NCBI GenBank assembly: GCA_977020255.1
Contig: CDROCS010000669.1
Coordinates: 124,001-188,000, forward strand
Direction of reading: 5' to 3'
DNA: 64,000 nucleotides
DNA from: Obrimoposthia wandeli
Lineage: Eukaryota
Under the pieces are notes generated by a model. It made no database searches and was not told the DNA's origin. It worked only from the letters and a program-made list of their open reading frames with translations. Position numbers and translations under genes: made by a program. The number at the start of each line of letters is the position of its first letter. The stretch's first letter is position 1. This document shows, piece after piece, positions 9,111 through 40,721 of this stretch.

Positions 9111-10199
9111 ATTAAAAAGGCGTTTCAAGTGTACTAAGTATAAATACATTTATTTTTACATTATTTATTATTTGTATCTATGGGTCAAATTGTGGATGTA
9201 TGTGTTATGATTAAATAATGGATATGCTAGTGGGAAATAACACTAATTAATTCTTTGAAAAACTCTTAGCAGCATTTATCAGTATATTTTTATTTTTTGC
9301 AAAAACGAATAACAAGTTGACTTTTATAAAGTATTTCCAAACATTTGTATGTCAAATGAAATCCCAATATATACGTGTAAGTCTTCTCTAGCAAGCCAGC
9401 AAATGTCACCAAAAGTTAAGAGTCCAGGATTTGTTTTTAATACAAGACAATGCTTCCTAATGCACAAGCCAGGTCAGATATTCAGCGATTATCAAGTCTG
9501 GCTTCAAGTTATTATCGTGCGCATAATATTCATAATTTTAATAGGTCACTTAGTAACTTCACAATATGTTGTGTGTTCAGTTCCAAAGGAAAGTTAAATT
9601 TAAATAATAAGTAAAATGGGCTATATTTATGGACATTGCCAAGGACATTTTAAGAACCATAAATTAAATTAAAAATAAAAAGTGTTTCTAGTTAACTTTT
9701 AATTATTCAACTAAGGTTATCTCTAGAAACGATTATTAATAGAGTCAACTGAGCTGCAGAAAAACAGAACGGTGGATTGGATAACATTTAATGGCAGAGC
9801 TGCAGTGTGTGAGTCATACAAGCAACAAGAGTCACCTAAGCCTGACTAAGCAATATTGTTTGTCAGCATTGCTGAGCCACATTAGTCAGAGTCAGTATCA
9901 TCAACAGGAATTTCATTGCGTTGAAGACATTTCTGACACCAGCCAATCATACGCCAGCGAGAAGAAGTTATAAAAAGAATTTGAAAACCGTAAAAAGATT
10001 ATAAGTTAAAGAAATTTACAAATATATCAATATAACTCGAACCATCGAATCACAAGTATAACGAGTAAGCATCGTATATCACAAGTATAGGCAGCCATCG
10101 AACACTATCGAAAACGGACTCCGAAAACAACAAGGATTTGATCAATCAGGCTCTCACCACATTTGGAAAATCATAATAAATAACAAACTAACACTAAAC

Positions 10200-11060
10200 A
10201 CAGAAACGTGTTCAGGCAGCATGTAAAAAATAAACTTTCTAGGATATACTTTGTCCATATATGGCATCAATCTTAATGTGACAAAACTGAAAACCATCTC
10301 AGAAATCTACCCACCACAAACATTGAAACAATTACGCATATTTTTTGGAAAAATCATTAAACGAGTACATAAAAACGCAAAAACTAAATTCAACAATTAA
10401 CAACTCCAAGATTTTAACAATGTAAATGAAGCACTTAAAACTGCCACTACTTTAACAAGCCCAACCAACAATGCGAAGGTAACTCTAACTACTGGCGCAT
10501 CCAACTTAACAGGAGCCGTATTGAATGAGATTATCAACAAACATAATTACCATTAGCTTTCTTCTCCAAAAAATTTAAGACTAATCAAACTAAATATTCA
10601 ACAAACAACAACGAAGTACTAGGAATATACCGCGCCATCAAACACTTCGAACAACAACAAATCGACAAAACATTCATCACATACACATATGATAAACCAT
10701 TAATACACACATTGCACATGAAAAATCCTACACCACGAAAAATAAAGACAAATAAATTACATGTCACAATTCCACACAGACATCAAGTTCATTCCAAACT
10801 TTACAATTATAATCACTGACACATTATCCAGACCATCTGACATAGACCAAACAAACACTACCAACCCTATAGATAACTTTTTTGAACCAAACAAACTCAT
10901 CAGCAAACAAAACTGACATGAATTCACACTCACGATACATACCCTTTCACTATGTACAACAACATATGGCATGATACTACAATCACATGTCTCACAAGAA
11001 TCATACTACTGCGAGAGTTACAAAGATATTAATAAATATACGAAATGCGATTACAACACA
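10200..11060 (+). mobile_element. Decayed Ty3/gypsy pol: RT C-terminus, RNase H and start of integrase
   Basis: KINFLGYTLS..GI...PPQTLKQLRIFFG; TTGASNLTGAVL...LAFFSKK...YSTNNNEVLGIYRAIKHF...TYDKPL fit the gypsy RT/RNase H consensus. Confidence 0.85.
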
Positions 11061-11476
11061 GTGATGGAAATATAAGAGGCGGTGTTTGGGTTAGGGAAGC
11101 AATAAGCGTATGAAACTCTAGTAGGTGGATCTGTCCGGTCTAATCCAACCCCAACCGTGCCTGTGTGTGGAGTTAAATTCCATGCATGTGTGTGTGGAAT
11201 GAAATTTCACGCATGTATGTGGAGCGAAATCTTGTGTATGTGTGTCCAGTCTACTCCCTCACCCTCTTGGGGAGGAATATCCCCCCTCATTTTTTTGTGT
11301 GTTACTTGGAGTGAAATTTCATGCATTGTGCATGAATTTCACATCCAATCTCAAAAGTGATTAAAGAAATCCACACGAATCCATCTCGACCCCATCGACT
11401 TATCTATTTCAGATAATACTTAGATATGAATATATGACTACTATATGTTAGAAGGATATCTAATAACAGATTTTAG

Positions 11477-12051
11477 ATGAATAAATTACTACATTGCAAG
11501 GACAAAATATGTCAAATAGATTTATATATTTTATTGAAGAAAATACAAGACGAAAAAATTTATTTCAATACATTTGTTGGGGTTTTTAAATGAAACCGTT
11601 AGATCCTCGTATGGAGGCCCCCAACGTGAGTTCTTTAGCGTTAAGATATACATATGGATGTGGCCTACCTATTCTTTCTTAAATTAGTTCTTAGTCTCGT
11701 GTTATGAGATGCAAAATACCTTTGCTTGAGTTCAAATTACCATTTGGAATTCGAATCACTGCAATACAATCAGTCACAATTTTAGCTAATCTTGGGAAAC
11801 AAATAAATCTTTATAAAATTGCAGAAAAAATGAAAGAAGAATGCATGTTTAAACTGTAAATTTTTCTTGCTCTCAGTTATTTGAAGTTTAAACCGCTATG
11901 TGTAAATATATTTTCCTTTGGTAAAGTTATGATATTGTGATTGAAAAGTTTTGATTATCCAGACATTGTTGATTCGATTTTAGAAAATATATCTTATTAC
12001 ATCTTGTTATCGTTTTTCTATAAACAAACCCGTTTAAACCTATTGTTTTAA
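11477..12051 (+). pseudogene. TBP-like (TATA-binding-protein fold) Polinton cargo gene, with stops
   Basis: 11700-11960 reads AIQSVTILANLGKQINLYKIAEKMKEECMFKL*IFLALSYLKFKPLCVNIFSFGKVMIL*LKS, which aligns by eye to the TBP repeat IQNIVA.A.L...I.L..+A...YEPE.FPGL.YR...P.....IF.SGKV.ITG.KS. Confidence 0.62.
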
Positions 12052-12258
12052 ATGAATAATACTATAAATACAGACAATGAAGGGGATCGTCTTGTCGACG
12101 AAATATTTTCTGGAAAAATCAAGGATAAACAAATTTTATCAGAATTAAAAAATAATGATATAACAAGAGATAACATTGAAACATTGGTTAAATCACACGT
12201 TATTCGAGTATTTAGAAATCGAACACAAATTAATAACATTATAACCAATATTCATTAA
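12052..12258 (+). CDS. Small Polinton ORF (68 aa) upstream of the ATPase, function unknown
   Basis: Intact ORF with ATG, conserved in the mirror arm (25254..25460). Confidence 0.5.
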   Translation: MNNTINTDNEGDRLVDEIFSGKIKDKQILSELKNNDITRDNIETLVKSHVIRVFRNRTQINNIITNIH

Positions 12259-12360
12259 TTTATTTTTGTATTTAATCTACAATAGCTCTAACATTATACA
12301 TATCAATAAAAAAAACTTATATGATACTATAAACAATATTAAAATGAAAGAGTATATGCA

Positions 12361-12996
12361 ATGGAGCTAAACAATAATGCTGTATTTCAAATAGTTGGTC
12401 CCCGTGGAAGTGGAAAGACACATTTCGTATGTAAATTGTTGCAAAAGGAATCTCTTTTCAATTCTAGTTTCAAAAATATTTATTGGCATCATGGTGGAGG
12501 AGGGGAAAGGGGTTTAACCAAAACAGAAGTTTGCAAGTTGAAAGGAATAACATTTATTGAAGGATTTCATGCGAATTGGTGTGAAATATTTAAAAAATAA
12601 GATGTAATAATAATTGAGGAAGCTAACAATAAATTGGACTTAAATAATTTATTTACAAAGATAGCAAGACATCGTGAAGTAACAGTTATATTTATCTCTC
12701 AAAATCTTTTTCACCAAGGAGGTCACCATAGAACAAGAAATCTTAATGTACATTAGTTAGTTTTATTTAAAAATCCTAGAGATCAAACAGTTGTAGATTT
12801 CGTGGCCAGACAGGCGTTTCCTCAAAATAAGAACTTCTAGTTGATTCATTCCATGATGCTGCTAAACAAGCACATGAGTATATATTTATTGACTTTACAC
12901 AAGCTTGTCCAGATGATTTACGTATTTTAACAGACATATTTAATTCTAAGGGAGTAACTGTTTATAAACAAATAGAGAACAATTATAAAAAATAAA
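12361..12996 (+). pseudogene. Polinton packaging ATPase (FtsK/HerA-like), frameshifted and with stops
   Basis: Walker A IVGPRGSGKT; downstream ARHREVTVIFISQNLFHQ...RTRNLN and LFKNPRDQ motifs typical of Polinton ATPases. Confidence 0.85.
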
Positions 12997-13172
12997 TTTA
13001 CAATGCCTTTTACGAAGTTGATAGTAAAACGTAAAGCAAAGCCTAAGAAATAATGAAAAGAATCATTAAGAAAAAAGAAGTGAAAAAATTAATCAAATCT
13101 GTAGTTAGAAATAAAAAAAACTATAATGGCTTCGAATATAAACAATACTCAAATTGAAGCTATTTTATTAAA

Positions 13173-13502
13173 ATGAAGAAAATACAAAGAAGCATACTCT
13201 ATTTTAAAGCTTTAGTCAAAGCCTCTTCTCATAAGAGAATGATTATTCTTAAAGCATTTCCATCCTTTGTTGTAGATGATTTATTGGAAGTTTTGTATAA
13301 TATAGTTTTGGGTCGAGTAAAAGTTGGAAATCGGAAAAATATATTAAAGAAATATAGAAAAACTCTTCTAGATATTGCTAATGTAAAAAGTAAAAAAAGG
13401 AAACGAAATATTATTCTTAAACATAATGGTGGTTTCATAGGGGCTGTTATTCCAGTTGTTGCTTTAATTATCAGTAGTATTATAGCTACAACACGATCAT
13501 AA
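13173..13502 (+). CDS. Conserved small basic Polinton protein (109 aa) located between ATPase and integrase
   Basis: Intact ORF ending in GGFIGAVIPVVALIISSII. Homologues at 24010..24339(-) and 60536-60874(-) in the same gene context. Confidence 0.65.
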   Translation: MKKIQRSILYFKALVKASSHKRMIILKAFPSFVVDDLLEVLYNIVLGRVKVGNRKNILKKYRKTLLDIANVKSKKRKRNIILKHNGGFIGAVIPVVALIISSIIATTRS

Positions 13503-13588
13503 ACAATTATTCATAAAATCAGCTAAAGATATGGGTGCTAACCCTAATTTACCTAAATTTAAATTTTCTTTCTATTCAAATTGCTGTA

Positions 13589-13951
13589 ATGGAGAAGATA
13601 TGGTTCAATCCAAAAAATTCAATTGGCTACACAGGAGTTTCAAAATTAGCAAAAAGAACAAAACAAAATTTAACAGAATTTTCTTTTTATTATTCTCCAG
13701 TTACTATTAGAAAAAACTCACACATTACGTTTACAAAAGAAGTTGATCATGAAAAAACAACTGAAGTTGTGATCGGGTTTGATAGTAAAGGACAATTCTA
13801 TTACAATTGTATAGATAAAGAAGTGAAAGTAATATTTGAAAATAACAAAGTCAGATTTAAAAATCGATTAAAATATCTTCAAGTTATTAAAATTAACTTT
13901 GAATCTAAAAAGAAGCTCTTCTATTCAGTTATGATAGTGAACAAACAGTAG
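13589..13951 (+). pseudogene. Deletion chimera: integrase N-terminus fused to internal penton sequence
   Basis: MEKIWFNPKNSIGYTGVSKLAK matches the element C integrase start MEKVWFDPSHPVGYTEISKLA; it then runs into TEFSFYY, matching element C penton AALTEFSFNY. Confidence 0.75.
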
Positions 13952-14049
13952 CTCGTAATAAACGGGATATAGTCTCATCTAAATCGGTTAGAAATGTTCC
14001 TGGTAGATTAGCAAGAGTATTTTTAGTTTAAACGAGACCAAAGATTGTA

Positions 14050-15015
14050 ATGGAACTGAAAATGTTTTCAAAAGATTATAAATTAGATAGTGAAGTGAAT
14101 TTCTGTAAATTAATACAGAAGGAATGTAGCGAATATTTAGATAAATGTGTATCATTAAAAAATGGTAAAATAACGTTTACAGTAAAGAGCAATATAAAAC
14201 GAGTTTTATTTGATGATAAACTCGCTAAAAACCTTGGTTTAAACATAAATACCTTTGAAACTCATACAATAAAAACCATAAAAGCTAAAAATAAGCCCAA
14301 ACCTTTAAATGCTGTTAATCATTTATATATTTATACTAATTTAATAGAACCAACGCTTGTAGGAGAACAGCGAGTTCCACTTTTGAGAACAATATGGATA
14401 TCTAAAAATGAAAATAAAGATGTGGACGCTGTCGGTATGTGTATAGATCAACCAATGTATCTTCCAGTTTCTCTCTTTTCTATAAACAATATTGAAGTAA
14501 ATATTAGAGATGATTCCAGACAACTAATAGATTTCACGTACGGGGCCAAGACAAGTTTAACAATACTTTTAATAAACAAAATGGCGAATCCAGCAATAAT
14601 TGAAGCTTATAGTCAAAGCCAACAAGGTGGAGAATTACTATATTTTGTTGGTAAACAATATGGATCTGGCTGGCTTAGAACATTAGGTAGATTTGCCTTT
14701 CCTCTTTTAAAGAGACTCGGGCGGTTTATATCAAAATTAGTAAAGGATTACCTTTCATCTAAAGACAATAAACTAAACAAATTTATATATAATGTTTTTT
14801 GTAAAATGGATAATAAAAATTGGAATAAATTATACATAAAATTATCTCCAGATTTAATGGAAGATTATAAAAAAAATTACTTTTCAGAAAATGATACTCC
14901 GGAAATTGTTGGAGATAAATTATGTAATTTAATTTCGAAATTTTTAGGTATGTTTACATTTAATATAATATATTTTAATATTCAAAGGAGAATTGACAAT
15001 ATATACCAATCTTAA
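14050..15015 (+). CDS. Chimeric 321-aa ORF: penton C-terminal half + start of the small pre-MCP protein + ORF across the inversion junction
   Basis: NHLYIYTNLIEP..VG...PLLRTI is penton-like; GGELLYFVGKQYGSGWLRTLGRFAFP is the pre-MCP core protein; the tail MDNKNWNKLYIKLSPDL is homologous to 39930-40140. Confidence 0.7.
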   Translation: MELKMFSKDYKLDSEVNFCKLIQKECSEYLDKCVSLKNGKITFTVKSNIKRVLFDDKLAKNLGLNINTFETHTIKTIKAKNKPKPLNAVNHLYIYTNLIEPTLVGEQRVPLLRTIWISKNENKDVDAVGMCIDQPMYLPVSLFSINNIEVNIRDDSRQLIDFTYGAKTSLTILLINKMANPAIIEAYSQSQQGGELLYFVGKQYGSGWLRTLGRFAFPLLKRLGRFISKLVKDYLSSKDNKLNKFIYNVFCKMDNKNWNKLYIKLSPDLMEDYKKNYFSENDTPEIVGDKLCNLISKFLGMFTFNIIYFNIQRRIDNIYQS

Positions 15016-16638: not shown

Positions 16639-17228
16639 TATATATCCCATTTAGAAGTTTAGATTATAAAAAAAATTATTAATTTATATCTAACTAATTA
16701 TTTTCATTTATTAAAATAGAAAGAAGGACATAAGGCTTTTTGTGAAATATGTATTTTCGATAAAATAAAATCTAATTTTGATATTGAAAATAGAATTTTT
16801 TATGTTTTAGATGGAATGGACGGCAAAAAGTATAAGACTTAAAAAAAAAATTTTCCTAAATTGAGGTTAAAAACTTTAAATGTTTCACGCGATCATCTAT
16901 TAAAAATTCCACGAAATATTTGCTGTCCATATCGTGATCATGGTGACCATTGCGCATATAAAAAATGTTTAAGTCTTTCTTATTATTACTTGACATGTAG
17001 ATAAACAATTATTCTAATTCATAATTTACAAAATTTTCATCAAATTACAAATAAGCCTTTTAATTGGAGGAATAAAAAAATAATAATATCAACCAATAAC
17101 AGATAAACAATCCTTCTCAATAAAATTCAAAATTTTCATCCAATAAGAAATGAGCATGTGTGCATAAATTTTAGTATATAAGCAAACACTTTCTTCATTT
17201 AAATCCCCGACTATTTGAAATAATGACT

Positions 17229-20200
17229 ATGATAAGAATCTATACTTATTATTTCATTATTAATATTTATTATTTCAGATTACATGTATCCTGTTTCCAG
17301 CATATTGTGGTGCTTCGGCTCCACATGGAAGAGAGTCCTGCATAGAGATAATGTCCGCCTACTATCGGACAAAGTCTCATGGGCTTCAATTCTTCATCTG
17401 CCCCTTCTGCAGAACAATGGAGGAGAAGGAGTTTCGAAACTTCTTCGGTGAACATCGAGATCATCTATCCTGTTTCACGGCCAACAACAAGAAGAGGGAT
17501 ATCGTGCAATTGGTGTGCGATTCACAGGCCGCACTTGCTCCAATTCCAGTTGCAATCGTTCAACTCGTTTACAGTCCTGCGATTGGTCTCCCGTCTCCTG
17601 ATTCTGCCCCATTCACTCAAATGACTAACAATGAGTGGATGAACGACATCTCCGAAGAAGATTTTGAGATGGAGCAGTGGAGCAACAACAGCTAGTTTGA
17701 GACCACCGAGGAATCTGATTTCGTCGAGTTAACGGACGACAGCTTGATGGATTCCATCAATGAAGAGGACTTCCAACCAGCTACAGTTGGATTGGCTTCA
17801 TTAGGTACTTTTTTATTATTTTTTATTATTTTTTAAAATTGTAATTATATATATTTTATATTTTATTTTTTATTCAGGAAATTCCGTGATACAGCCGTCG
17901 TCCACTACGACAGCTATGCCTCCCCCATCGCGAGAGCCTACATCGATGTTTGCACGCCTTAGAGGTAATAATTAAAAATATATATATTTATTTTTTAATA
18001 TATTTATTTCAGCAGCATCATCCTCTACAACAGCAGCTTCTTCGTCGGCAATGTCGGTTACTACTCCAAATGCAGCATCTACAACTGCGGCAGTACTTAC
18101 TACAGCAGCATCTCCTACAGCAGCATCTACTACAGCAGAATCTACTACATCAGCTGCGATTGCCTCAATATCGGCAGCATCACCAATATCAGCACCTTCA
18201 ACCTCAGCTGCGTTTGTGTCAACTGTTAATATAAATAGTTGTCTTCCCGTTCAATTAGGGGGAGGTTTGTCAGCGACTGTAGGAAGAAAGAGGCAAAGCC
18301 AATTTCTTAATAAGGTCCCACCAAAAAAACGTAGAGAAAATGGTGCTACTATAGAGTATCACGTAAATAATAAATATGTTATAGTTAAGGTGCCATTAGG
18401 AAATGAAATTTTAAGAAACGTAGTTGTAGATTCAAATATTGAAAATCTTTTAAAGTCAGAAGTGACTAAATTAGGACAGGCTAAGGTTCAATTTTGCTCA
18501 ACAGTTCAGTTTAAAAATGTCAATGAGGAGACTAAAACTTGGGTAATTTCACATAAAGCAACTGTTTTCTATGATAATTTTGTAACTGAATTGGAAGAAA
18601 CCTAGATGAAAAAATTGCTAATTATAGCGAGTTAAGTAGTGGCTGGAATCTAGTTAGAATTCACGATGTTAGCTTTGTTTTAATAAAGTTCACTGATATG
18701 ATATATCTTTCGGGGAGTTCATACATTCCTTCACCTAGATCTCTTTAACTTTCACGTTCCATTGTTAACGTATAAAACAGTGATAACCTTTGCTTTCTGT
18801 ATAGCGTATTGGCCATACTCAAAAGGGATGTAATTACTGAGCATAGAGAGCGTGTCAGTAAATATACCCCGTTTTTAAATGAATTGCAGTATCATGGAAT
18901 AGATTTTCCTGTTAAATTAACTGCGATATCAAGATTTGAACATCTTAATAACTTGAGTATTAATGTATTTAAATACAATACTGATATCCCAGTTAATGTA
19001 ACAGATGAAGAAAATTTTAAAAATCCTTTTGTAGATGTAATTTATAGGAGAAAAAATGAGGGGACTCAGATCAACTTAATTTTTCTCTAACATAATAAAA
19101 ATACCATTATGCTGCAATTCCCAGTTTAGATCGTCTTTTAAATTTAGATAATGGAGCCTTACCGGTTAGGATAAGGTGTAAGTGGTGTCATAGATGTTTA
19201 TATGGATTCTGATCCGAGCTCTCTTACAGCAAACATCTGACATTATGTTCACTGAATCCTGATGACAATATGCTATACAGCATGCCTAAGGATAAGGATT
19301 TAAAATTCAGGGATTGGGCAAAATGCATACCCGTGGAATTCAGGGTGTATGCAGGTTTTGAGTCAATTCTAGCATTGCACGACCAGTATGAGAGTATTCA
19401 CTTACCGGCTTCGGCAGGACTATTATTCTTAGGCCTTAATATTACACAGTATCATAAATTTTCCGGTACAAATTGTATTTTAGATTTTATGTTAAAATTA
19501 GAAGAATTAGGAACCAATATTGTCAAACCGTGGTATGATCTTAATGCTCATCAAGCAATGATCATGACAGGCATAGACTGGGTTAATTTTAATTCTAGCA
19601 GATCATGTTATTTGTGTGGTACCCAGTCTAAGTTAGTCAGAGATCACGATCATGTTACGGGGCGATAGTTGGGAATAGCGTGCAACCTCTGAAACCTTGG
19701 CGGTCGACTCCTTAAAATACCCCGCATTCCCATAGTGTTTCATAACCTCAAAGGACATGATTTGCATCATACACTTAAATACGCGTTGGATACATTAAGC
19801 TCTTGGGAAATTTCATGTAAACCTCAAACTTCAGAGAAATATTTATCTTTAACTGCATATACTGAATTCTGTAGTTTAAGATTCATAGATTCTCTGCAGT
19901 TTTTGAGCGGGTCTTTAAAAAATTGACTTAATAATCCCTTCCAATGTGCATGATAAATTAGATGATCTTTCAGTAGCGCCTGTTCATCAATGCCCACATA
20001 ATTCAAAGGTTAAGAAATTATTGTTAACACATGAAGACAAGTTGAATTATGTTGTGCATTGGTGGCTTCTTCAATTCTACTTACAGTTGGGAGCGAAAGT
20101 TACTCGTATTCATCGTGCTATAAGCTTCAGTCAAAACTGTGTGTTTAAAGATTATATTGAGAAGAATTCTAGAAAACGTAATTTGGCCACTAGCAAATTC

Positions 20201-20987
20201 GATCGGGATTTTTACAAGTTAAAAAGTAATAGTCTCTTTGGAAAAGCTGTAGAGGACTTGCGGAAACGTATTTGTCTACGGTTTTGCAATGATGAGTGTA
20301 AACTAATAACATATACTAGCAAGTACAACTTCAAGCGTAGTTTTACAATTGCAGATGACTTGGTAGCAGTGTTATTAGGAAAACAGAGTATTTGTTTCGA
20401 TCGACCGAGTTATATAGGTTAAACGGTTTTAGACATTTCTAAACTCAGAATATACGAGCTTCAATACATAGAATTAGAAAAATATCGACAAGAATTCAAT
20501 TGTGAGATCAAAATCGCAGCTGGGGACACTGACTCTTTCTTTTTAGAATGTAAAAATGTTAGTTTAAATAATCAATTATTACCGGCAATGTTTAGGGACA
20601 ACTTACTAGATACCCATAAATATCCCGCTAACCATCCTCTACACTCAATGAGTTTAAAGGATATTATCGGGAAATTTAAGTATGAAAGCTAGGGACAGGT
20701 TTCGTATGATGATTTTATTTTCCTACGCCCTAAATGCTACAGTTTACATGCATCTAATAATACATGTTCAATGAGAGCAAAGGGTGTGGGAAGAAACAAT
20801 CTTACATATGAGGCATACCGGAAAGTTTATGATACTGGGTGTATTGAAAGCTTTGAGCAAACAAAGATTTATTTCAAGAGCCCATCAACTGTATTCCCAT
20901 AAATCAACCAAAATAACTTTGAATAGTAATGACGACAAGCGCTTTTGGGTAGAAAAGAACGCTAGCCTGGCTTATGGACACTTCTGA
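17229..20987 (+). pseudogene. Intron-containing protein-primed DNA polymerase B of element A, with N-terminal Cys/His and S/T-rich module
   Basis: RVYAGFES, RDHDHVTG, FHNLKGHD, FIDSLQF, KLKSNSLFGK and AGDTDS motifs. Introns at 17232-17278, 17805-17877 and 17965-18012. Many stops, and a ~600-bp deletion near 19920 relative to element B. Confidence 0.92.
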
Positions 20988-21256
20988 ATTTAAGCGGTTT
21001 TGATTTTTTGATTTTTTTAGTTTAGTTTTTTAAAATTTTAGATCCTTATGGCACCTTGACTCTAACATTTTGTTATTTCAATACATTTTTTAGGATGGAC
21101 CTTATCTTTGCTGACATATCTCATTGTGATGTTGTGATTAATAAATGTATTAAAAAAAATTCGTCTTATGTCTTTTATTATTTTACCCTTATATTTTTAA
21201 GGGATTTAAAAAAAAATTCAAAATAAAACATTAAAAATATTTATTTTTATAACACA

Positions 21257-21636
21257 CTAGTCGTTTTGCAACGATAACCATAAAATACATAAATGTCCAC
21301 AGTTTCTCGTCGCATGATCCTGATATTGTATCTTGTTGTAAAATACTCTTCTTCGTCCTTTTTGAATAGTCGAAACAAGTTTGTGTGGATAATACATTGC
21401 AAATGGATCAAATACATGTATTGTCCACTCTCTAACATAAATAGCTATCCAATGTTCTCCTGGTAAATTCGAAGTATGAGTATTGATAATGTAACCTCCA
21501 GATTGAAAAAATGGAATCATATCAATAGGATAAACTCCATTGAGTTTATCACCCAGGACCTTCTCTGCTGATTCTTGTACTTGTACTGAACTAAATAAAA
21601 ATTAATAAATATAAATTTAAAAATGTCTTACATCAT
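21257..21636 (-). CDS. Adenain-like cysteine protease of element A (ATG 21636, 41-bp intron 21591-21631)
   Basis: INTHTSNLPGEHWIAIY, VFDPF and YQD...NCGHLC give the His/Asp/Gln/Cys catalytic set. Splicing gives an in-frame MISVQVQES start. Confidence 0.88.
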
Positions 21637-22571: not shown

Positions 22572-22945
22572 TTTGCAAATATTGTTTCTTCAACTTTCTT
22601 ACGTTTGTTTATATTGATTTTTAGCTTCTTTTTACTTTTAAATCCACTACCTCCTTGGCTTTTATTTGATTTACGTTTTCTAATCAAATTAGCAACTTCA
22701 GGTAAAACATTATCAAGTTCATCAAGTGCATGCTTCTTAAAAGTTGGTATTAGTTTATTGTCCTTAGATGAAAGGTAATCCTTTACTAATTTTGATATAA
22801 ATCGCCCGAGTCTCTTTAAAATAGGAAAGGCAAATCTACCTAATGTTCTAAGCCAGCCAGATCCATATTGTTTACCAACAAAATATGGTAATTATCCACC
22901 TTGTTGGCTTTGACTATAAGCTTCAATTATTGCTGGATTCGCCAT
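22568..22945 (-). pseudogene. Small basic pre-MCP core-like protein of element A
   Basis: QQGG*...YFVGKQYGSGW...KKHALDELD...QGGSGFKSKKK; its stop overlaps the MCP ATG (ATGA). Confidence 0.65.
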
Positions 22946-23462
22946 TTTGTTTATTAAAAGTATTGTTAAACTTGTCTTGGCCCCGTACGTGAAATCTATT
23001 AGTTGTCCGGAATCATATCTAATATTTACTTCAATATTGTTTATAGAAAAGAGAGAAACTGGAAGATACATTGGTTGATCTATACACATACCGACAGCGT
23101 CCACATCTTTATTTTCATTTTTAGATATCCATATTGTTCTCAAAAGTGGAACTCGCTGTCCTCCTACAAGCGTTGGTTCTATTAAATTAGTATAAATATA
23201 TAAATGATTAACAGCATTTAAAAGTTTTGCCTTATATATAGCTTTTATGGTTTCAAAGGTATTTCTTTTTAAACCAAGGTTTTTAGCGAGTTTATCATCA
23301 AATAAAACTCGTATTATATTGCTCTTTACTGTAAACGTTATTTTACCATTTTTTTAATGTTACACATTTATCGAAATATTCACTACATTCCTTCTGTATT
23401 AGTTTACATAAATCCACTTCACTATCTATTTTATAATCTTTTGAAAACATTTTCAGTTCCAT
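22946..23462 (-). pseudogene. Penton (minor capsid) C-terminal half, right arm
   Basis: Mirror of 14050-14580 with a frameshift; LRTIWISK...PMYLPVS...IEVNIR.DSGQLI.F..GAKT. Confidence 0.8.
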
Positions 23463-23560
23463 TACAATCTTTGGTCTCGTTTAAACTAAAAATACTCTTG
23501 CTAATCTACCAGGAACATTTCTAACCGATTTAGATGAGACTATATCCCGTTTATTACGAG

Positions 23561-23923
23561 CTACTGTTTGTTCACTATCATAACTGAATAGAAGAGCTTA
23601 TTTTTAGATTCAAAGTTAATTTTAATAACTTGAAGATATTTTAATCGATTTTTAAATCTGACTTTGTTATTTTCAAATATTACTTTCACTTCTTTATCTA
23701 TACAATTGTAATAGAATTGTCCTTTACTATCAAACCCGATCACAACTTCAGTTGTTTTTTCATGATCAACTTCTTTTGTAAACGTAATGTGTGAGTTTTT
23801 TCTAATAGTAACTGGAGAATAATAAAAAGAAAATTCTGTTAAATTTTGTTTTGTTCTTTTTGCTAATTTTGAAACTCCTGTGTAGCCAATTGAATTTTTT
23901 GGATTGAACCATATCTTCTCCAT
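23561..23923 (-). pseudogene. Integrase/penton deletion chimera, right arm
   Basis: Mirror of 13589-13951. Confidence 0.75.
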
Positions 23924-24009
23924 TACAGCAATTTGAATAGAAAGAAAATTTAAATTTAGGTAAATTAGGGTTAGCACCCATATCTTTAGCTGATTTTATG
24001 AATAATTGT

Positions 24010-24339
24010 TTATGATCGTGTTGTAGCTATAATACTACTGATAATTAAAGCAACAACTGGAATAACAGCCCCTATGAAACCACCATTATGTTTAAGAATA
24101 ATATTTCGTTTCCTTTTTTTACTTTTTACATTAGCAATATCTAGAAGAGTTTTTCTATATTTCTTTAATATATTTTTCCGATTTCCAACTTTTACTCGAC
24201 CCAAAACTATATTATACAAAACTTCCAATAAATCATCTACAACAAAGGATGGAAATGCTTTAAGAATAATCATTCTCTTATGAGAAGAGGCTTTGACTAA
24301 AGCTTTAAAATAGAGTATGCTTCTTTGTATTTTCTTCAT
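24010..24339 (-). CDS. Conserved 109-aa Polinton protein, right arm
   Basis: Translation identical to 13173..13502. Confidence 0.65.
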   Translation of the reverse strand: MKKIQRSILYFKALVKASSHKRMIILKAFPSFVVDDLLEVLYNIVLGRVKVGNRKNILKKYRKTLLDIANVKSKKRKRNIILKHNGGFIGAVIPVVALIISSIIATTRS

Positions 24340-24515
24340 TTTAATAAAATAGCTTCAATTTGAGTATTGTTTATATTCGAAGCCATTTAAGTTTTTTTTA
24401 TTTCTAACTACAGATTTGATTAATTTTTTCACTTCTTTTTTCTTAATGATTCTTTTCATTATTTCTTAGGCTTTGCTTTACGTTTTACTATCAACTTCGT
24501 AAAAGGCATTGTAAA

Positions 24516-25151
24516 TTTATTTTTTATAATTGTTCTCTATTTGTTTATAAACAGTTACTCCCTTAGAATTAAATATGTCTGTTAAAATACGTAAATCATC
24601 TGGACAAGCTTGTGTAAAGTCAATAAATATATACTCATGTGCTTGTTTAGCAGCATCATGGAATGAATCAACTAGAAGTTCTTATTTTGAGGAAACGCCT
24701 GTCTGGCCACGAAATCTACAACTGTTTGATCTCTAGGATTTTTAAATAAAACTAACTAATGTACATTAAGATTTCTTGTTCTATGGTGACCTCCTTGGTG
24801 AAAAAGATTTTGAGAGATAAATATAACTGTTACTTCACGATGTCTTGCTATCTTTGTAAATAAATTATTTAAGTCCAATTTATTGTTAGCTTCCTCAATT
24901 ATTATTACATCTTATTTTTTAAATATTTCACACCAATTCGCATGAAATCCTTCAATAAATGTTATTCCTTTCAACTTGCAAACTTCTGTTTTGGTTAAAC
25001 CCCTTTCCCCTCCTCCACCATGATGCCAATAAATATTTTTGAAACTAGAATTGAAAAGAGATTCCTTTTGCAACAATTTACATACGAAATGTGTCTTTCC
25101 ACTTCCACTGGGACCAACTATTTGAAATACAGCATTATTGTTTAGCTCCAT
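24516..25151 (-). pseudogene. Packaging ATPase, right arm
   Basis: Walker A IVGPSGSGKT; same disruptions as the left copy. Confidence 0.85.
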
Positions 25152-25253
25152 TGCATACACTCTTTCATTTTAATATTGTTTATAGTATCATATAAGTTTT
25201 TTTTATTGATATGTATAATGTTAGAGCTATTGTAGATTAAATACAATAATTAA

Positions 25254-25460
25254 TTAATGAATATTGGTTATAATTTTATTAATTTGTGTTCGATTTCTAA
25301 ATACTCGAATAACGTGTGATTTAACCAATGTTTCAATGTTATCTCTTGTTATATCATTATTTTTTAATTCTGATAAAATTTGTTTATCCTTGATTTTTCC
25401 AGAAAATATTTCGTCGACAAGACGATCCCCTTCATTGTCTGTATTTATAGTATTATTCAT
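25254..25460 (-). CDS. Small 68-aa Polinton ORF, right arm
   Basis: Mirror of 12052..12258 with one amino-acid difference. Confidence 0.5.
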   Translation of the reverse strand: MNNTINTDNEGDRLVDEIFSGKIKDKQILSELKNNDITRDNIETLVKSHVIRVFRNRTQINKIITNIH

Positions 25461-26035
25461 TTAAAACAATAGGTTTAAACGGGTTTGTTTATAGAAAAAC
25501 GATAACAAGATGTAATAAGATATATTTTCTAAAATCGAATCAACAATGTCTGGATAATCAAAACTTTTCAATCACAATATCATAACTTTACCAAAGGAAA
25601 ATATATTTACACATAGCGGTTTAAACTTCAAATAACTGAGAGCAAGAAAAATTTACAGTTTAGGCATGCATTCTTCTTTCATTTTTTCTGCAATTTTATA
25701 AAGATTTATTTGTTTCCCAAGATTAGCTGAAATTGTGACTGATTGTATTGCAGTGATTCGAATTCCAAATGGTAATTTGAACTCAAGCAAAGGTATTTTG
25801 CATCTCATAACACGAGACTAAGAACTAATTTAAGAAAGAATAGGTAGGCCACATCCATATGTATATCTTAACGCTAAAGAACTCACGTTGGGGGCCTCCA
25901 TACGAGGATCTAACGGTTTCATTTAAAAACCCCAACAAATGTATTGAAATAAATTTTTTCGTCTTGTATTTTCTTCAATAAAATATATAAATCTATTTGA
26001 CATATTTTGTCCTTGCAATGTAGTAATTTATTCAT
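25461..26035 (-). pseudogene. TBP-like cargo gene, right arm
   Basis: Mirror of 11477-12051. Confidence 0.62.
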
Positions 26036-26451
26036 CTAAAATATGTTATTAGATATCCTTCTAACATATAGTAGTCATATATTCATATCTAAGTATTATC
26101 TGAAATAGATAAGTCGATGGGGTCGAGATGGATTCGTGTGGATTTCTTTAATCACTTTTGAGATTGGATGTGAAATTCATGCACAATGCATGAAATTTCA
26201 CTCCAAGTAACACACAAAAAAATGAGGGGGGATATTCCTCCCCAAGAGGGTGAGGGAGTAGACTGGACACACATACACAAGATTTCGCTCCACATACATG
26301 CGTGAAATTTCATTCCACACACACATGCATGGAATTTAACTCCACACACAGGCACGGTTGGGGTTGGATTAGACCGGACAGATCCACCTACTAGAGTTTC
26401 ATACGCTTATTGCTTCCCTAACCCAAACACCGCCTCTTATATTTACATCAC

Positions 26452-27311
26452 TGTGTTGTAATCGCATTTCGTATATTTATTAATATCTTTGTAACTCTCG
26501 CAGTAGTATGATTCTTGTGAGACATGTGATTGTAGTATCATGCCATATGTTGTTGTACATAGTGAAAGGGTATGTATCGTGAGTGTGAATTCATGTCAGT
26601 TTTGTTTGCCGATGAGTTTGTTTGGTTCAAAAAAGTTATCTATAGGGTTGGTAGTGTTTGTTTGGTCTATGTCAGATGGTCTGGATAATGTGTCAGTGAT
26701 TATAATTGTAAAGTTTGGAATGAACTTGATGTCTGTGTGGAATTGTGACATGTAATTTATTTGTCTTTATTTTTCGTGGTGTAGGATTTTTCATGTGCAA
26801 TGTGTGTATTAATGGTTTATCATATGTGTATGTGATGAATGTTTTGTCGATTTGTTGTTGTTCGAAGTGTTTGATGGCGCGGTATATTCCTAGTACTTCG
26901 TGGTTGTTTGTTGAATACTTAGTTTGATTAGTCTTAAATTTTTTGAGAAGAAAGCTAATGGTAATTATGTTTGTTGATAATCTCATTCAATACGGCTCCT
27001 GTTAAGTTGGATGCGCCAGTAGTTAGAGTTACCTTCGCATTGTTGGTTGGGCTTGTTAAAGTAGTGGCAGTTTTAAGTGCTTCATTTACATTGTTAAAAT
27101 CTTGAAGTTGTTAATTGTTGAATTTAGTTTTTGCGTTTTTATGTACTCGTTTAATGATTTTTCCAAAAAATATGCGTAATTGTTTCAATGTTTGTGGTGG
27201 GTAGATTTCTGAGATGGTTTTCAGTTTTGTCACATTCGGATTGATGCCATATATGGACAAAGTATATCCTAGATAGTTTATTTTTTACATGCTGCCTGAA
27301 CATGTTTCTGT
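26452..27311 (-). mobile_element. Inverted copy of the gypsy RT/RNase H relic
   Basis: ORF 26693..26986 reads EVLGIYRAIKHF...DKPL; mirror of 10200-11060. Confidence 0.85.
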
Positions 27312-27446
27312 GTTTAGTGTTAGTTTGTTATTTATTATGATTTTCCAAATGTGGTGAGAGCCTGATTGATCAAATCCTTGTTGTTTTCGGAGTCCGTTTT
27401 CGATAGTGTTCGATGGCTGCCTATACTTGTGATATACGATGCTTAC

Positions 27447-27665
27447 GTAATAGTACTGAAAAAGTACGCGGACCTACTCAAAGTTCCAATGACGAAACCG
27501 AGACCCCAAGCAGCTACTGTTACTGCTACCGAGGACCAGCAGCATATTGAGACCCGGACCTACGTAAAGTAGAAGAGGCCCCTATGGGGCCTTTGAGAAA
27601 TTGATTGCATTCACATTAATAAATGTTTGATAAATAGATAAATAAATAAATAAATAAATAATTTT
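27447..27665 (+). mobile_element. Arm-specific 219-bp segment resembling a retroposon 3' end (stem-loop plus (TAAA)n tail)
   Basis: Absent from the left arm, where 46 bp (10019-10064) sit instead. Contains the hairpin GAGGCCCCTATGGGGCCTT followed by AATAAA and about seven TAAA-like repeats. Confidence 0.5.
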
Positions 27666-28195
27666 TAAATTTCTTTAACTTATAATCTTTTTACAGTTTT
27701 CAAATTCTTTTTATAACTTCTTCTCGCTGGCGTATGATTGGCTGGTTACAGAAATGTCTTCAACGCAATGAAATTCCTGTTGATGATACTGACTCTGACT
27801 AATGTGGCTCAGCAATGCTGACAAACAATATTGCTTAGTCAGGCTTAGGTGACTCTTGTTGCTTGTATGACTCACACACTGCAGCTCTGCCATTAAATGT
27901 TATCCAATCCACCGTTCTGTTTTTCTGCAGCTCAGTTGACTCTATTAATAATCGTTTCTAGAGATAACCTTAGTTGAATAATTAAAAGTTAACTAGAAAC
28001 ACTTTTTATTTTTAATTTAATTTATGGTTCTTAAAATGTCCTTGGCAATGTCCATAAATATAGCCCATTTTACTTTTATTTAAATTTAACTTTCCTTTGG
28101 AACTGAACACACAACATATTGTGAAGTTACTAAGTTTCCTATTAAAATTATGAATATTATGCGCACGATAATAACTTGAAGCCAGACTTGATAAT

Positions 28196-29822: not shown

Positions 29823-31091
29823 TTAATAAACAGTACTTTTTGAGAAAATGTCATCAAGACGGATACTTTTAAAATATACGAAGTAGCCACAAGCGATCGA
29901 TACAGATAGCACAATTAGGCTGTATTTACCGGAAAAATAAGTTACAACACCTAGGAAAACTATACAACAGAGAACTTTAAAAAATTCCCGTTCAAATTTA
30001 CGAGTCCAAATTTTTTTATTACGTCGTTTATTATTTTTATCATTCTTACCACCTGTATTTTTCGTAATTTTATCAGTCTTTTTAAAATCATCTATTTTCT
30101 TACTTTCTCTGCGAACACATTTTCCACTCTGAGAGTCTTTGGTATAATCTTCTTCACAACTACATTCGTAGCTGCCCGGAATGTTTGTACACTTCTCTCC
30201 AACGCCTCGACAGAGAGCACTATCGGCACTGCACTCGTTTACATCTTCACACACATAACCAACACTCTGATAACCGTCGTTACACTGTATACATTTATCA
30301 GAACCTTCTCCAGTACAATTGAGACATGATTTATCACATGCTTTGCAGTCGTAATTCCCATATGTGTTAAAGCAATACGTTCCTTCTGTGCAGTTAACAT
30401 TTTCCTCCACACACTCATCTATATCTTTACAAGCACCTTCAAATGACAAAAATCCAGATGAACAATTCAAACAATCTTTATCAGTTGGACCGTTACAACC
30501 ACTACACGACATCGGGCATGAGTTACATCCATTTTCAGAAGAATAATACGCGAATATACATGAATCACATTGATCACCCATGTATCCAGTATGACATAAA
30601 CAAGTCCCATTACCATGTCTGGTACCATTACCATCACAATTACCGTGTCCATTACAAAACTGTTGAGAAGTGGCATCAAAATATAAGCACTTGTTACAAC
30701 TTTCCCCAAAATGATTATCAGGACAGCATATTTTTATTTTATCAACGCATAGAAATTCGAATAAATTCCGTAACGTCTGATCTTTACGGAAGTAATTGAA
30801 CCACCAATCCTCGATTTTTTCTTCAACTTCCTCGCGTAAATATTGACATTTATCTCGATTAGTAACTGAACTTGGGCATAGATTCTCTAAAATATGAATC
30901 AATCTTGTTTCACTAGTTGCAAAATTTCCTAATCGTCGCTCCTCCCACGCTGTGTTTCCACCACCAAAATTGCTTTTTTCCGATTCCTTCAAACCATTAT
31001 TAAATTCATTAACAAGATTTTTACATATATCGCAAGGCTCAAATGCAGCTTCTGATATTAACAATGAAATAATTAATAAAAAAACATGCAT
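29823..31091 (-). CDS. CRELD: CRELD-like protein (signal peptide, CxxC/DUF3456 domain, EGF and furin-like repeats, C-terminal TM helices), single coding exon
   Basis: CDIC...NFGGGNTAWEERRLGNFATSETRLIHILENLC...EEKIEDWWF is diagnostic; calcium-binding EGF DIDEC/DVNEC repeats and two hydrophobic C-terminal segments. Likely start is MHVFLL at 31091. Confidence 0.95.
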   Translation of the reverse strand: MHVFLLIISLLISEAAFEPCDICKNLVNEFNNGLKESEKSNFGGGNTAWEERRLGNFATSETRLIHILENLCPSSVTNRDKCQYLREEVEEKIEDWWFNYFRKDQTLRNLFEFLCVDKIKICCPDNHFGESCNKCLYFDATSQQFCNGHGNCDGNGTRHGNGTCLCHTGYMGDQCDSCIFAYYSSENGCNSCPMSCSGCNGPTDKDCLNCSSGFLSFEGACKDIDECVEENVNCTEGTYCFNTYGNYDCKACDKSCLNCTGEGSDKCIQCNDGYQSVGYVCEDVNECSADSALCRGVGEKCTNIPGSYECSCEEDYTKDSQSGKCVRRESKKIDDFKKTDKITKNTGGKNDKNNKRRNKKIWTRKFEREFFKVLCCIVFLGVVTYFSGKYSLIVLSVSIACGYFVYFKSIRLDDIFSKSTVY

Positions 31092-32951
31092 AGTCTGAAC
31101 TATAAAATCTGAAAACAAAAAATAAAAAACAAAAATTTACGTTTCAATTTTGCATTGGCTAGTTGTCAATATTAAAACAATGGAGGAATTTAATAATAAA
31201 ATTTTGAAATCTTTAAATCTCTGAAATTTGAAACTACCAGAAAACAACTGTACTTTAAATACTTAAATTACCCTAATTTTTATTTAAAAATTTATCCACT
31301 GCTCTTCATTAAATAATTAACTTTGACATTTGTCATCTATAATTAAATGTATAAAAAACTTAACCAACTAAATACCTTAAAGTTTATGAGTATCACATGA
31401 TATTTTAATAATAGTCTAATAATTATGTATTATATATTATAATAGTTTAAATGTTCTATTTATTATTTTCTTTCATTTTTATAGTTTACATGATATCTTT
31501 TATAGCGTATTTTATAGATAAAATAATAATATCGTTACTAAAAAATCATATTTTAAATTTTAAAATAGTTCTAAAAAATTCTCTCATAAAGTATATTCTC
31601 AGTAACTTAAAGTAACTTTATCGAATATGTTATATTCATAAAGTTTATTGTGAAAAGTTTGTTAATTTTAAAAAAATAATTATTATAGATGGTTAGTGTC
31701 GATGAATAAGCTGAAGTACAGAGATGTTTTTTATATTTGCAAAAATGCTTTCAGGCACAGCAATCTTGAATTAAATTTAGAACCTAAAACTACATCTAGA
31801 TGTATAAATATCAATTTATTTACTACTAACAGTAAAGCGTTTAAAAATTAGAGTGGCATAAGTGTTCTAAGAATAGTTACTTTATAACTTCAAAAATTCC
31901 AGGATGTGTTTTTTTGTCATTTTTATCATCATAGTGTTTTTATTTAAAAACAGTCGATTAAAAAGTCAAATCAAATAAGAAGTATATAAATTGACCGTTT
32001 TTTTAACTGCAAAGAAGAATAAAAGTTTTAAGTTATTTCAAATGTCTATCAAATGTTCAAGAAAACTTTTAAATTTATAATTCTATTTAATATTTTGAGA
32101 TGCTGTCCAAAACTGTCATGAAAGATGTATTTCCAGGTTAATGAATGTTAATACCTGCAGGGAGTGAAAAAGTTGTGGAAGACATGGTATGTTAGAAACA
32201 CGGGTACACCTGAATGAGGGGTAAATAGGTGAGATCAAGTTGAGACATCCCGGATTTCAAAAAGAGTTTGTAAAAGCTCCACCAGGACTTTTGTGATTTC
32301 GTGATGATGCGTCATCACAAGATGATTTATTATCTTGGTTTGATCAGAGGAGTCAATTTAAATTAAACTGATAGCAGATTGGAACCCATGTTCACTGAAT
32401 AGAAGGATATTTGATTACTCATAAAGCTAACGAAGTTCATCGAAGAAATTTTGTTTTGTCGAATTACTTTCTTATTTTTATTGTATTTACATTTTAGAAT
32501 TATTTTAGACTTATCTGTAAATACAGATTTTCAACAGTAAGCTTAAGCCGACGATAAGCCAAAAAGTGAAATAAATTTGTTTCAAAATTAATTTGTAGAT
32601 ACAAGTGACGTTATTATTTATTTGTTTAAAGTTTTAAGGATTATTTGGAATTTATCCGTGAAAATCTGTTTTATTAAATTAACTCTTTATTTATAAACAA
32701 GAAGCCCCACGAAACAGTTGCACCACATAAATGTGGATACAACAGAGGAAAAAAGTGAATCATGGATATTTTTCCAGAAGAACATTAGTGGGCTGATCAT
32801 TGCAGGAGAGACGCAGCTTCAGTAGGTTAGCAGGTGAGACTGGTCACAAAATGTCGCAGCTCCAGTTGGTCACATCTATCAGAGGATTAGCCAACTCTAC
32901 CTGGATTTGATGATTAGTAGATAGGATCTAGTCAGGACGTCCCAAAATGGA

Positions 32952-34891: not shown

Positions 34892-35657
34892 TTTATAAAT
34901 TATTAAATAAAAAATAAAATTGATTCTATTTATATAAATTTATTTTATTTAGTTTACAACAACAGGTCAATTACATAAGAGTTTGAGGCAAATGAAAAAG
35001 TTTAATAATTCTCCAATCATATCACGTGGAGAGAATTATGATGAAATTGATAGTCCAATCAAATAAAACCTCGATTTAGTATATAAGAGTAAAACTTTCA
35101 ACTCTAAATTAAAAAAGAAGATAATAAACTAGACAATAGCAACATCAGCAGCAACATCAACAGCAACATCACTAGCAATATCATCATCACCAGCAACAAC
35201 ATCATCAGAATCATCATCATCAGCTGCAACAACATCATGAGCAATGAGACTGAAAGAAACTATTGATGAAGTCAAGATAGAAGAAATGATTGTAGTGAAG
35301 ACAATTATTGAAGAAGATGAAGATAAAAAATGCCTTTTTAAATGCTTTGGCTTTTATGAAACCCATAATAGCTCATACTTCAATTATTTAAATCAATCAT
35401 ATGACCAACCTTAGTTTGTTTGGTGTGGGATTTAGTCAACTTAATGCAGAAAAATTAAACAGAACAAAAGTAAGTGAGATTTTAGTAAATCAATTATATA
35501 TTGATAATTACAGTAATTATTTACCTATAAGGGGTCCCACCTATAAGGGTGTCCGGTCACCGAAAATTTCACGCTTCACCTATAAGGGTACCCGGTGACC
35601 GGATTTAAGTCCTTGATTTTTTTTTAATCACAGAGAAAATTCAACTCAATGATCAAT

Positions 35658-37484: not shown

Positions 37485-38179
37485 TCTTGTGGTGAAAAGA
37501 AAGATTCTAAAGTAACCAGATTTACATAAATGTTCTATATAATACTAAAATTACCACCAACATTATATAATTTCGGTGGGTTATTAAATCCGGAGTTATA
37601 GAATGAAGTTTTAACTGGAGTAGCGCCTCGTTGGATTATCAAAAAATCTATAATGATATTGAATATATAATATCTTCGAATCTGTAAAAGGTTAAAAAGG
37701 GCTATAAACTTTTCATATTATATAAGTTATTAAATATCCATATAGGTATCTGAAAAATTTCAAGAAATTTTCTGTTTTTTATTTTTCGAGGTATTAAATC
37801 ATAAATACTTTAAATTAAATTAAATTTTGTAATATTATTTTTGCCTATTTACTATTTTAAATATAATTTTTGTATTAGAGTTAGTTTTTCTAGTTTAATC
37901 ATAGGATATAATTTTCATTTTAGGAGCAGTTTGACTTTAAAGTGCTATTCTACTTTTAGGAGGAGTAGTGCAGTAGTTTTCGGAGATTCATCTTACATAC
38001 ACACACTGGCCAAATGACTGAAAAAATGAATATATTTAGATCCACGACGCAAACAACTCCTTCAATAACGTATGAAACGATGTTCAAAGAAATTTCTTGA
38101 CCTAGAGGAGGCACATATGTAATGCGAAACAACAAATTGTAGGACAAAAAGTATCAAAGTAAAAAGAAACACTCAAAAC

Positions 38180-38342
38180 AAATGAAATCAACAAGTACAA
38201 ACAAAAAGTATCAAAGTTCAAAGAAAAAATCAAAACAAATGAAATCAACAAATACAAACAAAAAGTATCAAAGTTCAAAGCAACAATCAAAACAAATGAA
38301 ATCAACAAATACAGACAAAAAGTATCAAAGTTCAAAGCAAGA
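38180..38342. repeat. 57-bp tandem repeat (about 3 units) inside pogo copy 1
   Basis: Unit AAATGAAATCAACAAATACAGACAAAAAGTATCAAAGTTCAAAGCAACAATCAAAAC, visible as the 19-aa repeat in ORF 38182..38424. Confidence 0.9.
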
Positions 38343-40600: not shown

Positions 40601-40721
40601 TTACAGGAATAAAATAAATGAAAATAAATATTTTCAGTCAATAATATAAGATCATGTATAAATTTTGTATATAAGCTCTAACATTTTTTAATTTCAATCA
40701 CCGATTTTTGAAATTATGAAT

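Follow-up and report, generated by a model that had tools for sequence, protein, structure and literature searches.

This study concerns a stretch of 64,000 nt from Obrimoposthia wandeli (contig CDROCS010000669.1, positions 124,001 to 188,000 of the forward strand; hereafter the window), which contains three copies of Polintons, and the introns found in their DNA polymerase (PolB) and protease genes. The sequences point to a Polinton clade in which core genes are probably spliced, a feature that is broader than the single intron behind the PolB start codon described in the first-pass annotation of this DNA. With high to very high confidence, the introns are real and needed for full-length proteins, and it is highly probable that they are ordinary U2-type GT-AG introns of the host kind, near-minimal in size, residing in the PolB genes of high-copy elements. 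The intron at the start of PolB is likely one case of a clade-wide habit of placing short introns close to where core genes begin at their 5' ends.

Polinton copies and families

The copies are labeled A and B (plus strand) and C (minus strand). Their PolB genes are all decayed, with numerous stops and frameshifts, and they come from an assembly of 1.35 Gb. They are Polintons and the gene is PolB, as first annotated. A match to PF03175 (pPolB) lies at 19919-20419 in element A (E = 5e-9), and in a Pfam search of the genome for PolB all 91 scored matches, drawn from 24,442 candidates, were positive; homologues also carry PF03175. A retroviral-like integrase was recognized in locus L232 (PF00665, E = 5e-13), to which broken window open reading frames (ORFs) at 13517 and 23995 are homologous, and an A32-like packaging ATPase matched PF04665 above the cut-off (E = 4e-5). 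The adenain-like protease matched PF00770 weakly and below the cut-off (E = 0.003-0.03), with His and Cys motifs visible; at E ≤ 0.001 it has 1486 homologues, and in the genome each of the 150 scored protease matches was 100% identical. The ORF adjoining the protease is conserved without a Pfam match, and only its position points to a capsid gene.

Both family A copies whose termini were examined, which are 97-98% identical to each other, have 93-bp terminal inverted repeats starting AGT and 6-bp target duplications; the true ends of the window's own copies were not found. The repeats of A and B are mostly 80-95% identical, placing these two elements in one family. Copy number is high, with 4634 first-look candidates for the A 5' region and 873 for that of C. 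An ORF at L012:2258-3451 is mostly a Gypsy gag insertion and was useless as a query for long C-family PolB frames. A further family, D, came from the Pfam search and has single unbroken PolB frames of ~1200 codons in all 20 fetched loci. No intron was evident in the integrase, ATPase and capsid-position frames of one young A copy.

An intron at the start of PolB

The first-pass annotation had placed an ATG followed by a 47-nt intron in each of the three copies, and these positions stand, each segment leading in phase 0 to a downstream Cys-rich open frame. The features are as follows:

17175-17181, plus strand: TATA box of A PolB, 48 nt before the first ATG
17223-17231, plus strand: coding part of PolB exon 1 in A, three codons (Met-x-Met); upstream ATG in 36/37 parsed copies
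17232-17278, plus strand: predicted PolB intron 1 in A, 47 nt, phase 0, non-canonical donor in this decayed copy; GT-AG in 34/37 parsed copies
40716-40724, plus strand: coding part of PolB exon 1 in B (Met-x-Met); TATA box at 40668-40674
40725-40771, plus strand: predicted PolB intron 1 in B, 47 nt, non-canonical acceptor, same family as A (from sequence)
52602-52608, minus strand: TATA box of C PolB (from sequence)
52553-52555, minus strand: coding part of PolB exon 1 in C, a single Met codon (from sequence)
52506-52552, minus strand: predicted PolB intron 1 in C, 47 nt here and 34-56 nt in other copies, phase 0, GT-AG (copy comparison)
48631-52505, minus strand: PolB exon 2 in C, whose Cys/His domain runs on into the polymerase frame (from other copies); broken, 3' end approximate

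The one-codon first exon that had been described holds for C. In A and B, an in-frame ATG 6 nt upstream of the noted one is the first ATG after the TATA box, giving three codons, and a C variant (L066, L072 and L088, with L066 and L067 being one duplicated locus) differs in its upstream sequence and has a first exon of 13 codons, which leads into the same acceptor. Whether 3, 1 or 13 codons long, the first exon finishes in phase 0. The distance from the TATA box to the first ATG is 48 nt in A and B and 53 nt in C, and the TATA box of intronless relatives (L123, L124, L129) lies 34-40 nt upstream of the PolB ATG.

Intron 1 begins AT and ends TTTCAG in A, begins GTAAG and ends AA in B, and reads GTAAG..TTTTAG in C. 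Position 17232 reads G at 99.7% of depth in sequencing run X1, and similarly in runs X2-X4, so the odd donor of the A window copy is a rare variant. Other copies were checked for GT-AG at this site: 37 of the 41 family A loci could be parsed, as could 42 of 51 family C loci (six duplicates having been removed beforehand), and the donor together with the T-rich YAG acceptor of U2-type introns is kept in 34 and 35 of these, respectively. The claimed length of exactly 47 bp applies to the three window copies and to 33 A copies (the other four having 46 nt). It does not apply to family C, where the segment ranges from 34 to 56 nt, with 47 nt in 3/42 copies and a multiple of three in 8/42. The pattern ATG-GT[AG]AG..T[TA][CT]AG with an A+T content of at least 80% has a single occurrence on both strands of the window (128 kb), at C.

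Intron 1 matches host introns in size and composition. Those of host CCT genes, predicted by profile score in a small sample, measure 40, 42, 48, 69 and 90 nt with 76-83% A+T, plus longer ones, and lengths of 40-50 nt form the short-intron class of the host itself; host CCT4 is 62-66% identical to its best database matches, mostly from invertebrate animals. TAAT/TAAC-like words that could serve as branch points are present, but these are uninformative in such AT-rich sequence. An ATG/GT intron in host CCT4 was considered as a start-codon intron and rejected, as the Met is internal. A suspected second C PolB intron near 52010 was likewise rejected, since other copies (L024) read through in frame, and no second intron was found within the 5' region of C PolB that was examined. 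With GT-AG retained across copies, it is very likely that the 47-nt segments represent genuine U2-type introns at the 5' end of PolB in these Polintons.

The N-terminus of PolB and selection on the spliced frame

By sequence comparison, the Cys-rich frame behind intron 1 is the N-terminus of PolB. In other copies, exon 2 of C runs without a break into the PolB frame, family D has the same Cys/His domain at or near its first Met and running into the polymerase, and metagenomic PolBs also hold it. Across 12 aligned PolB N-termini, Cys3, Cys21, Cys41, His59 and His62 (A numbering) never vary, and conservation of Cys10 is at least 90%. In the intronless relatives L123, L124 and L129 a Met stands 1-4 residues before the first Cys, where splicing would put the exon-1 Met. 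The first Cys of exon 2 falls at codon 3 in A but at codon 2 in C, meaning that the intron position is equal relative to the start codon alone. The domain probably binds metal. It had no Pfam match and its Atlas matches were all under 0.9; a single-sequence fold was unusable (predicted local distance difference test score, pLDDT, 31), and an alignment-based model (pLDDT 77) had no Foldseek match at E ≤ 0.001, the best Z being 2.4.

Selection was assessed on the codons from the acceptor to a conserved internal Met (codons 1-21 in A and 1-20 in C). For variants found in at least three copies, the ratio of non-synonymous to synonymous polymorphism (pN/pS) in the spliced frame was 0.17 in A (8 synonymous and 4 non-synonymous; binomial p = 0.003) and 0.20 in C (11 and 11; binomial p = 0.0003). 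The other two frames gave 0.85-2.2 or zero synonymous changes, and private variants gave 0.71-0.87. Purifying selection in the spliced frame indicates that these codons are selected as protein, and hence that a start upstream of them is needed. The earlier proposal of a spliceosomal intron at the PolB start is thus supported by both GT-AG retention and selection.

Further introns in family A PolB and its relatives

Two more introns in A PolB escaped the first-pass annotation:

17279-17804, plus strand: PolB exon 2 in A, N-terminal Cys/His domain and acidic repeats, one stop; 526 nt in 17/20 mapped copies
17805-17877, plus strand: predicted PolB intron 2 in A, 73 nt, phase 1, GT-AG; GT-AG in 20/20 mapped copies, 67-121 nt
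17878-17964, plus strand: PolB exon 3 in A, 87 nt; 87 nt in 16/20 mapped copies
17965-18012, plus strand: predicted PolB intron 3 in A, 48 nt, phase 1, GT-AG; GT in 20/20 and AG in 18/20 mapped copies, 31-49 nt
18013-20990, plus strand: last PolB exon in A, linker then polymerase (PF03175), broken, 3' end approximate; open for 1180-1200 codons in L211-L214

Ten young A copies were chosen solely for a long last exon, and in all four that could be parsed in full every exon is open and, across three GT-AG introns, stays in phase up to a final stretch of 1180-1200 codons. In the open last exon, Met first occurs at about residue 233 of 1212, which would be past the putative terminal protein, judging by the domain order given in PMC11161782. 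The earlier statement that full-length replicase depends on splicing is supported on sequence grounds, and in A introns 2 and 3 would contribute to this dependence more strongly still than intron 1.

The eight closest metagenome loci were examined at the PolB 5' end. Four of these (L125, L126, L133 and L139) have 2-4 phase-1 GT-AG segments of 40-53 nt between stop-free linker exons, one (L128) has a segment immediately before the ATG, and the remaining three show no such segment. As a control, 21,921 nt of PolB core were scanned, and the single candidate returned is itself an in-phase L125 intron. IMG/VR yielded no relative with a single query, and with an alignment yielded distant ones alone (25-31%).

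At L125:1133-1176 there is a 44-nt phase-1 intron in the conserved part of PolB, and protein P0029 has an intron-like insert at apparently the same site. On the minus strand of L231 (600-2200), family A accessory ORFs upstream of PolB are split by GT-AG segments of 44, 47, 76 and 72 nt, suggesting a multi-exon accessory gene.

An intron in the protease gene

The protease also carries a candidate intron near its start, which likewise escaped the first-pass annotation:

21632-21636, minus strand: coding part of protease exon 1 in A, ATG plus 2 nt (from sequence)
21591-21631, minus strand: predicted protease intron in A, 41 nt, phase 2 in codon 2, GT-AG; same position in families C and D
21257-21590, minus strand: exon 2 of the adenain-like protease in A (PF00770 weak; homologues)

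The segment measures 41-46 nt in A copies, with GT-AG in 27/30, and 39 nt in C and 38 nt in the single D copy read, with codon and phase as in A. Unspliced, the protease would stop at codon 3 in A, C and D copies outside the window. Many of the closest protease homologues elsewhere start M-N/D-x, which is what splicing would give. Four database proteases (P0243, P0245, P0246 and P0255) have intron-like hydrophobic, acceptor-like leaders ending at the intron position, as read from protein sequence alone, and three close homologues start late. Metagenome loci gave two distant matches at protease 5' ends, one with an uninterrupted Met start and one cut off. In the window C copy, a fragment resembling a Polinton terminus (53576-53683) occupies the expected place of the protease start and intron, and the intron is absent there.

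Could the genes be read without splicing?

Several points weigh against the introns being real. AT-rich tracts slip readily, and variation in intron length is by itself no proof of an intron. Many C copies hold an in-frame Met at exon-2 codon 4, from which a slightly shortened PolB could start unspliced. All 20 loci of family D have a GTAAGT..AG segment, 47-59 nt long, whose end lies 6-53 nt upstream of the ATG, and the segment in L128 resembles it. The D segment may be a 5'-untranslated region (UTR) intron or, despite its intron-like GTAAGT..TTCAG form, a promoter look-alike (TATA plus initiator), which shows that such segments can mislead. Introns 2 and 3 were mapped in 20 of 30 loci, with the other 10 failing parsing, and six of the ten young A copies were not fully parsed by the patterns used. 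In the selection test, shared variants were counted per column in related copies, so the p-values are indicative only.

These points leave room for a reading in which the segment behind the first ATG is unspliced and belongs to the 5'-UTR or promoter, with PolB beginning at a Met further downstream; in-frame candidates for it lie at exon-2 codons 22 and 25 in A and codon 4 in many C copies. The look-alike segment upstream of the D ATG fits this, as does the lack of any observed junction read. The four sequencing runs, all of one sample, cover the promoter and intron 1 evenly and so behave as DNA; the joint of exons 1 and 2 was absent among the 15 joints listed, which in DNA-like runs, with the intron 2 and 3 regions skipped as repeats, is evidence neither way. 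However, the purifying selection and the conserved cysteines lie upstream of those Mets, and exon-2 codon 4 encodes Ile rather than Met in a C subfamily, which therefore lacks the nearest alternative start. A TATA box is already present upstream of exon 1, and translation could not continue across introns 2 and 3 of A or the protease intron, each of which has in-frame stops or alters the frame. An unspliced 5' segment is accordingly very unlikely, and spliced introns remain the preferred reading.

Origin of the introns

The intron at the PolB start had been described as conserved in three Polintons. It is present in all three copies, but A and B belong to one family, which leaves two independent observations rather than three. 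The interiors of intron 1 in A and B are identical at 24/35 positions (p = 0.002 against shuffles), whereas those of A and C are identical at 16/35 (p = 0.54), no closer than shuffled sequence. PolB identity between A and D is 49%, and the window C fragments are 34-57% identical to A and 36-59% to D, the three families being about equally far apart. In a quick tree of PolB, from which L125 was left out as too short, A and C group with P0003 and P0007 at a Shimodaira-Hasegawa-like approximate likelihood ratio test (SH-aLRT) value of only 81, and P0007, a metagenomic protein within this group, has an unbroken N-terminal Met.

A single origin of intron 1 in A and C is moderately probable. Its phase, its donor hexamer (GTAAGA) and the promoter spacing are the same or similar in both families, which do group in the tree, if weakly, and the persistence of the protease intron across A, C and D indicates that such persistence is possible. 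It must be weighed against a somewhat doubtful but serious alternative, namely that the introns are real and that the start-codon intron was gained independently in A and C, at a favourable ATG/G site and at the minimal size of host introns, without being ancestral. The low identity by segment of the A and C PolBs and the unrelated intron interiors would agree with this, as would the position of the intron, which differs by one codon relative to the first Cys. The grouping of A and C is the weak one that includes P0007, no intron follows the Met in family D or in L123, L124, L129, L133 and L139, and linker introns vary in number and place among lineages, implying repeated gains. The first-pass claim that the intron predates the split of A and C is consequently plausible but not supported by the weak grouping, the unbroken P0007 and the intronless start in D.

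The protease intron appears from sequence to be the better case for an old shared intron; its position is common to A, C and D, whose PolBs are about 45-50% identical. A further-reaching proposal is that a whole, mostly unsampled animal Polinton clade, within the group that gave rise to adenoviruses, places replicase and protease start codons on tiny first exons as an ancestral, adenovirus-like and splicing-dependent plan that times replication and maturation; this is fairly unlikely.

Introns inserted by host introner elements into dead copies after integration would be a different source. In dinoflagellates, eupolintoviral elements are populated by introners, mostly after integration, according to sections of PMC12166617, and these likewise are spliceosomal introns inside polinton-type elements. 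Whereas those introns are described as mostly young transposon insertions, the ones here are fixed family traits, with the protease intron in three families. Dozens of dispersed copies that have 6-bp target duplications of their own share the same intron at one site, meaning that it travelled with active elements, and no shared sequence was seen between introns at different sites (by eye, with intron 1 of A and C tested). Insertion into dead copies is therefore hardly credible, being contradicted for intron 1 and for the protease intron, although an introner origin before the families spread is possible. Gain within this Polinton clade, followed by carriage through active transposition, is the likely history.

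Expression and role of the introns

Host RNA polymerase II would transcribe the element in the nucleus, and the spliceosome would remove the introns constitutively, joining the start Met to the Cys/His domain; in A, two further junctions would carry the frame on to the polymerase. Unspliced RNA would give short or out-of-frame peptides, of 7 codons in C, in another frame in A and B, and ending at the codon 3 stop in the protease. As to why the introns persist, which is the least certain part of this account, the most probable reading is that, as 5' introns, they are close to neutral or enhance expression mildly; that they form a dedicated switch is less probable. The former is favored because the young family D has none after the PolB Met and because linker introns come and go.

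A regulatory switch would instead have intron retention silence the replicase and protease in most tissues and splicing in the germ line or under stress activate them. The P element is controlled by tissue-specific splicing. In the two core genes here an intron parts the start codon from the rest of the frame, such that retention leads to a stop or frameshift. The splice sites are, however, strong and host-like, and the young, unbroken D frames do without an intron after the PolB Met, which makes a switch unlikely.

Other features of the window and related loci

Within element A, 9488-14776 and 22750-28195 form an inverted duplication of ~5.3 kb, 97-99% identical, of the ATPase-integrase-capsid arm. 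It is missing from two other family A copies and hence is locus-specific, being either a recent duplication or an assembly artefact; L235-L237 hold a similar 99% inverted duplication. Upstream of the A PolB promoter, a hAT transposase ORF (PF05699; 15396-16526) lies within a small exonuclease-motif-like ORF, and inside B PolB exon 2 there is a short inverted-end element with an 8-bp target duplication (41033-41520), a hAT-type miniature inverted-repeat transposable element. Two pogo/Tc5-type DDE transposons (35509-38666 and 56049-59303) are 99% identical, in opposite orientation, and contain a 57-bp tandem array. C-type elements have a dual-specificity phosphatase adjoining the ATPase (61996-62445; PF00782, E = 9e-12), likely cargo, with a decayed copy near 38680-38990. 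Between the Polintons, on the minus strand at 29823-31136, is a single-exon CRELD-like gene with EGF_CA domains, a signal peptide and a hydrophobic C-terminal segment.

Outside the window, family D encodes a TBP-like protein (L098:1513-1974, minus strand; PF00352, E = 1.5e-12) head-to-head with PolB, ~100 nt apart. Some 20 intronless full-length Cpn60 genes lie on large contigs, and at L122 groES and groEL form a pair of bacterial type; bacterial contigs are thus likely to be part of the assembly.

Comparison with known systems and implications

Core genes of Polintons are usually described as intronless, as the first-pass annotation had noted. Passages on intact vertebrate Mavericks report 'eight conserved and intronless ORFs' and that 'No introns were observed' (PMC8097293), those on nematode Mavericks give intronless core genes and intron-bearing cargo genes (10.1101/2022.07.12.499685), and one survey, in its methods as excerpted, used prokaryotic gene callers because endogenous viruses 'do not contain introns' (PMC10120064). 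Among the papers listed in searches on Polinton and adenovirus splicing, no title or opening of an abstract concerned fixed spliceosomal introns in Polinton PolB or protease, although an earlier mention, as in Repbase or supplements, is possible. Spliceosomal introns of Polintons are also unmentioned in the available portions of PMC8502044, 10.1101/2023.08.22.554363, PMC9683012, PMC11296320, PMC7851563, PMC5507307 and PMC9499273. PolB across this clade carries an endonuclease-VII-like insert (PF02945, residues about 554-608 in L098 and L094) that is reminiscent, by description alone, of the HNH-bearing pPolB2 outlined in part of 10.1101/2023.08.22.554363. The elements share pPolB, the rve integrase, the A32-like ATPase, the adenain-like protease, terminal inverted repeats as well as 6-bp duplications with animal Polintons/Mavericks (eupolintoviruses, adintoviruses). 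They differ in that PolB and protease carry 1-4 predicted introns, and the description as intronless does not fit them.

In human adenovirus, a short exon gives the first three residues of pTP and the polymerase. Adenoviruses are descendants of polintons, as stated in a section of PMC11161782, and in adenovirus E2B the mRNAs for pTP and Ad-pol have 5' exons in common, which splicing joins to a terminal coding exon, and two exons encode pTP (from part of PMC11304566). Adenovirus introns measure kilobases, are alternative and belong to a shared transcription unit, whereas those predicted here are 30-120 nt long, host-type and within single genes, and no homology of introns between the two is shown. 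Mirusviruses likewise have spliceosomal introns in core genes of a double-stranded DNA virus, taken in the relevant passages of PMC12768974 as a sign of nuclear reproduction, but they belong to a different virus realm and many of their introns encode homing endonucleases, unlike the minimal, AT-rich introns here.

These findings contradict the working rule of intronless Polinton core genes, on which surveys rely. Intron-blind pipelines would truncate or miss such elements, and several database proteins of this clade do have truncated or intron-like N-termini. Junction reads would offer an easy assay for expression of high-copy Polintons. Fixed spliceosomal introns would imply nuclear transcription of an actively spreading element by the host polymerase, and this clade may serve as a model of how introns are gained in an adenovirus-related lineage of DNA viruses.

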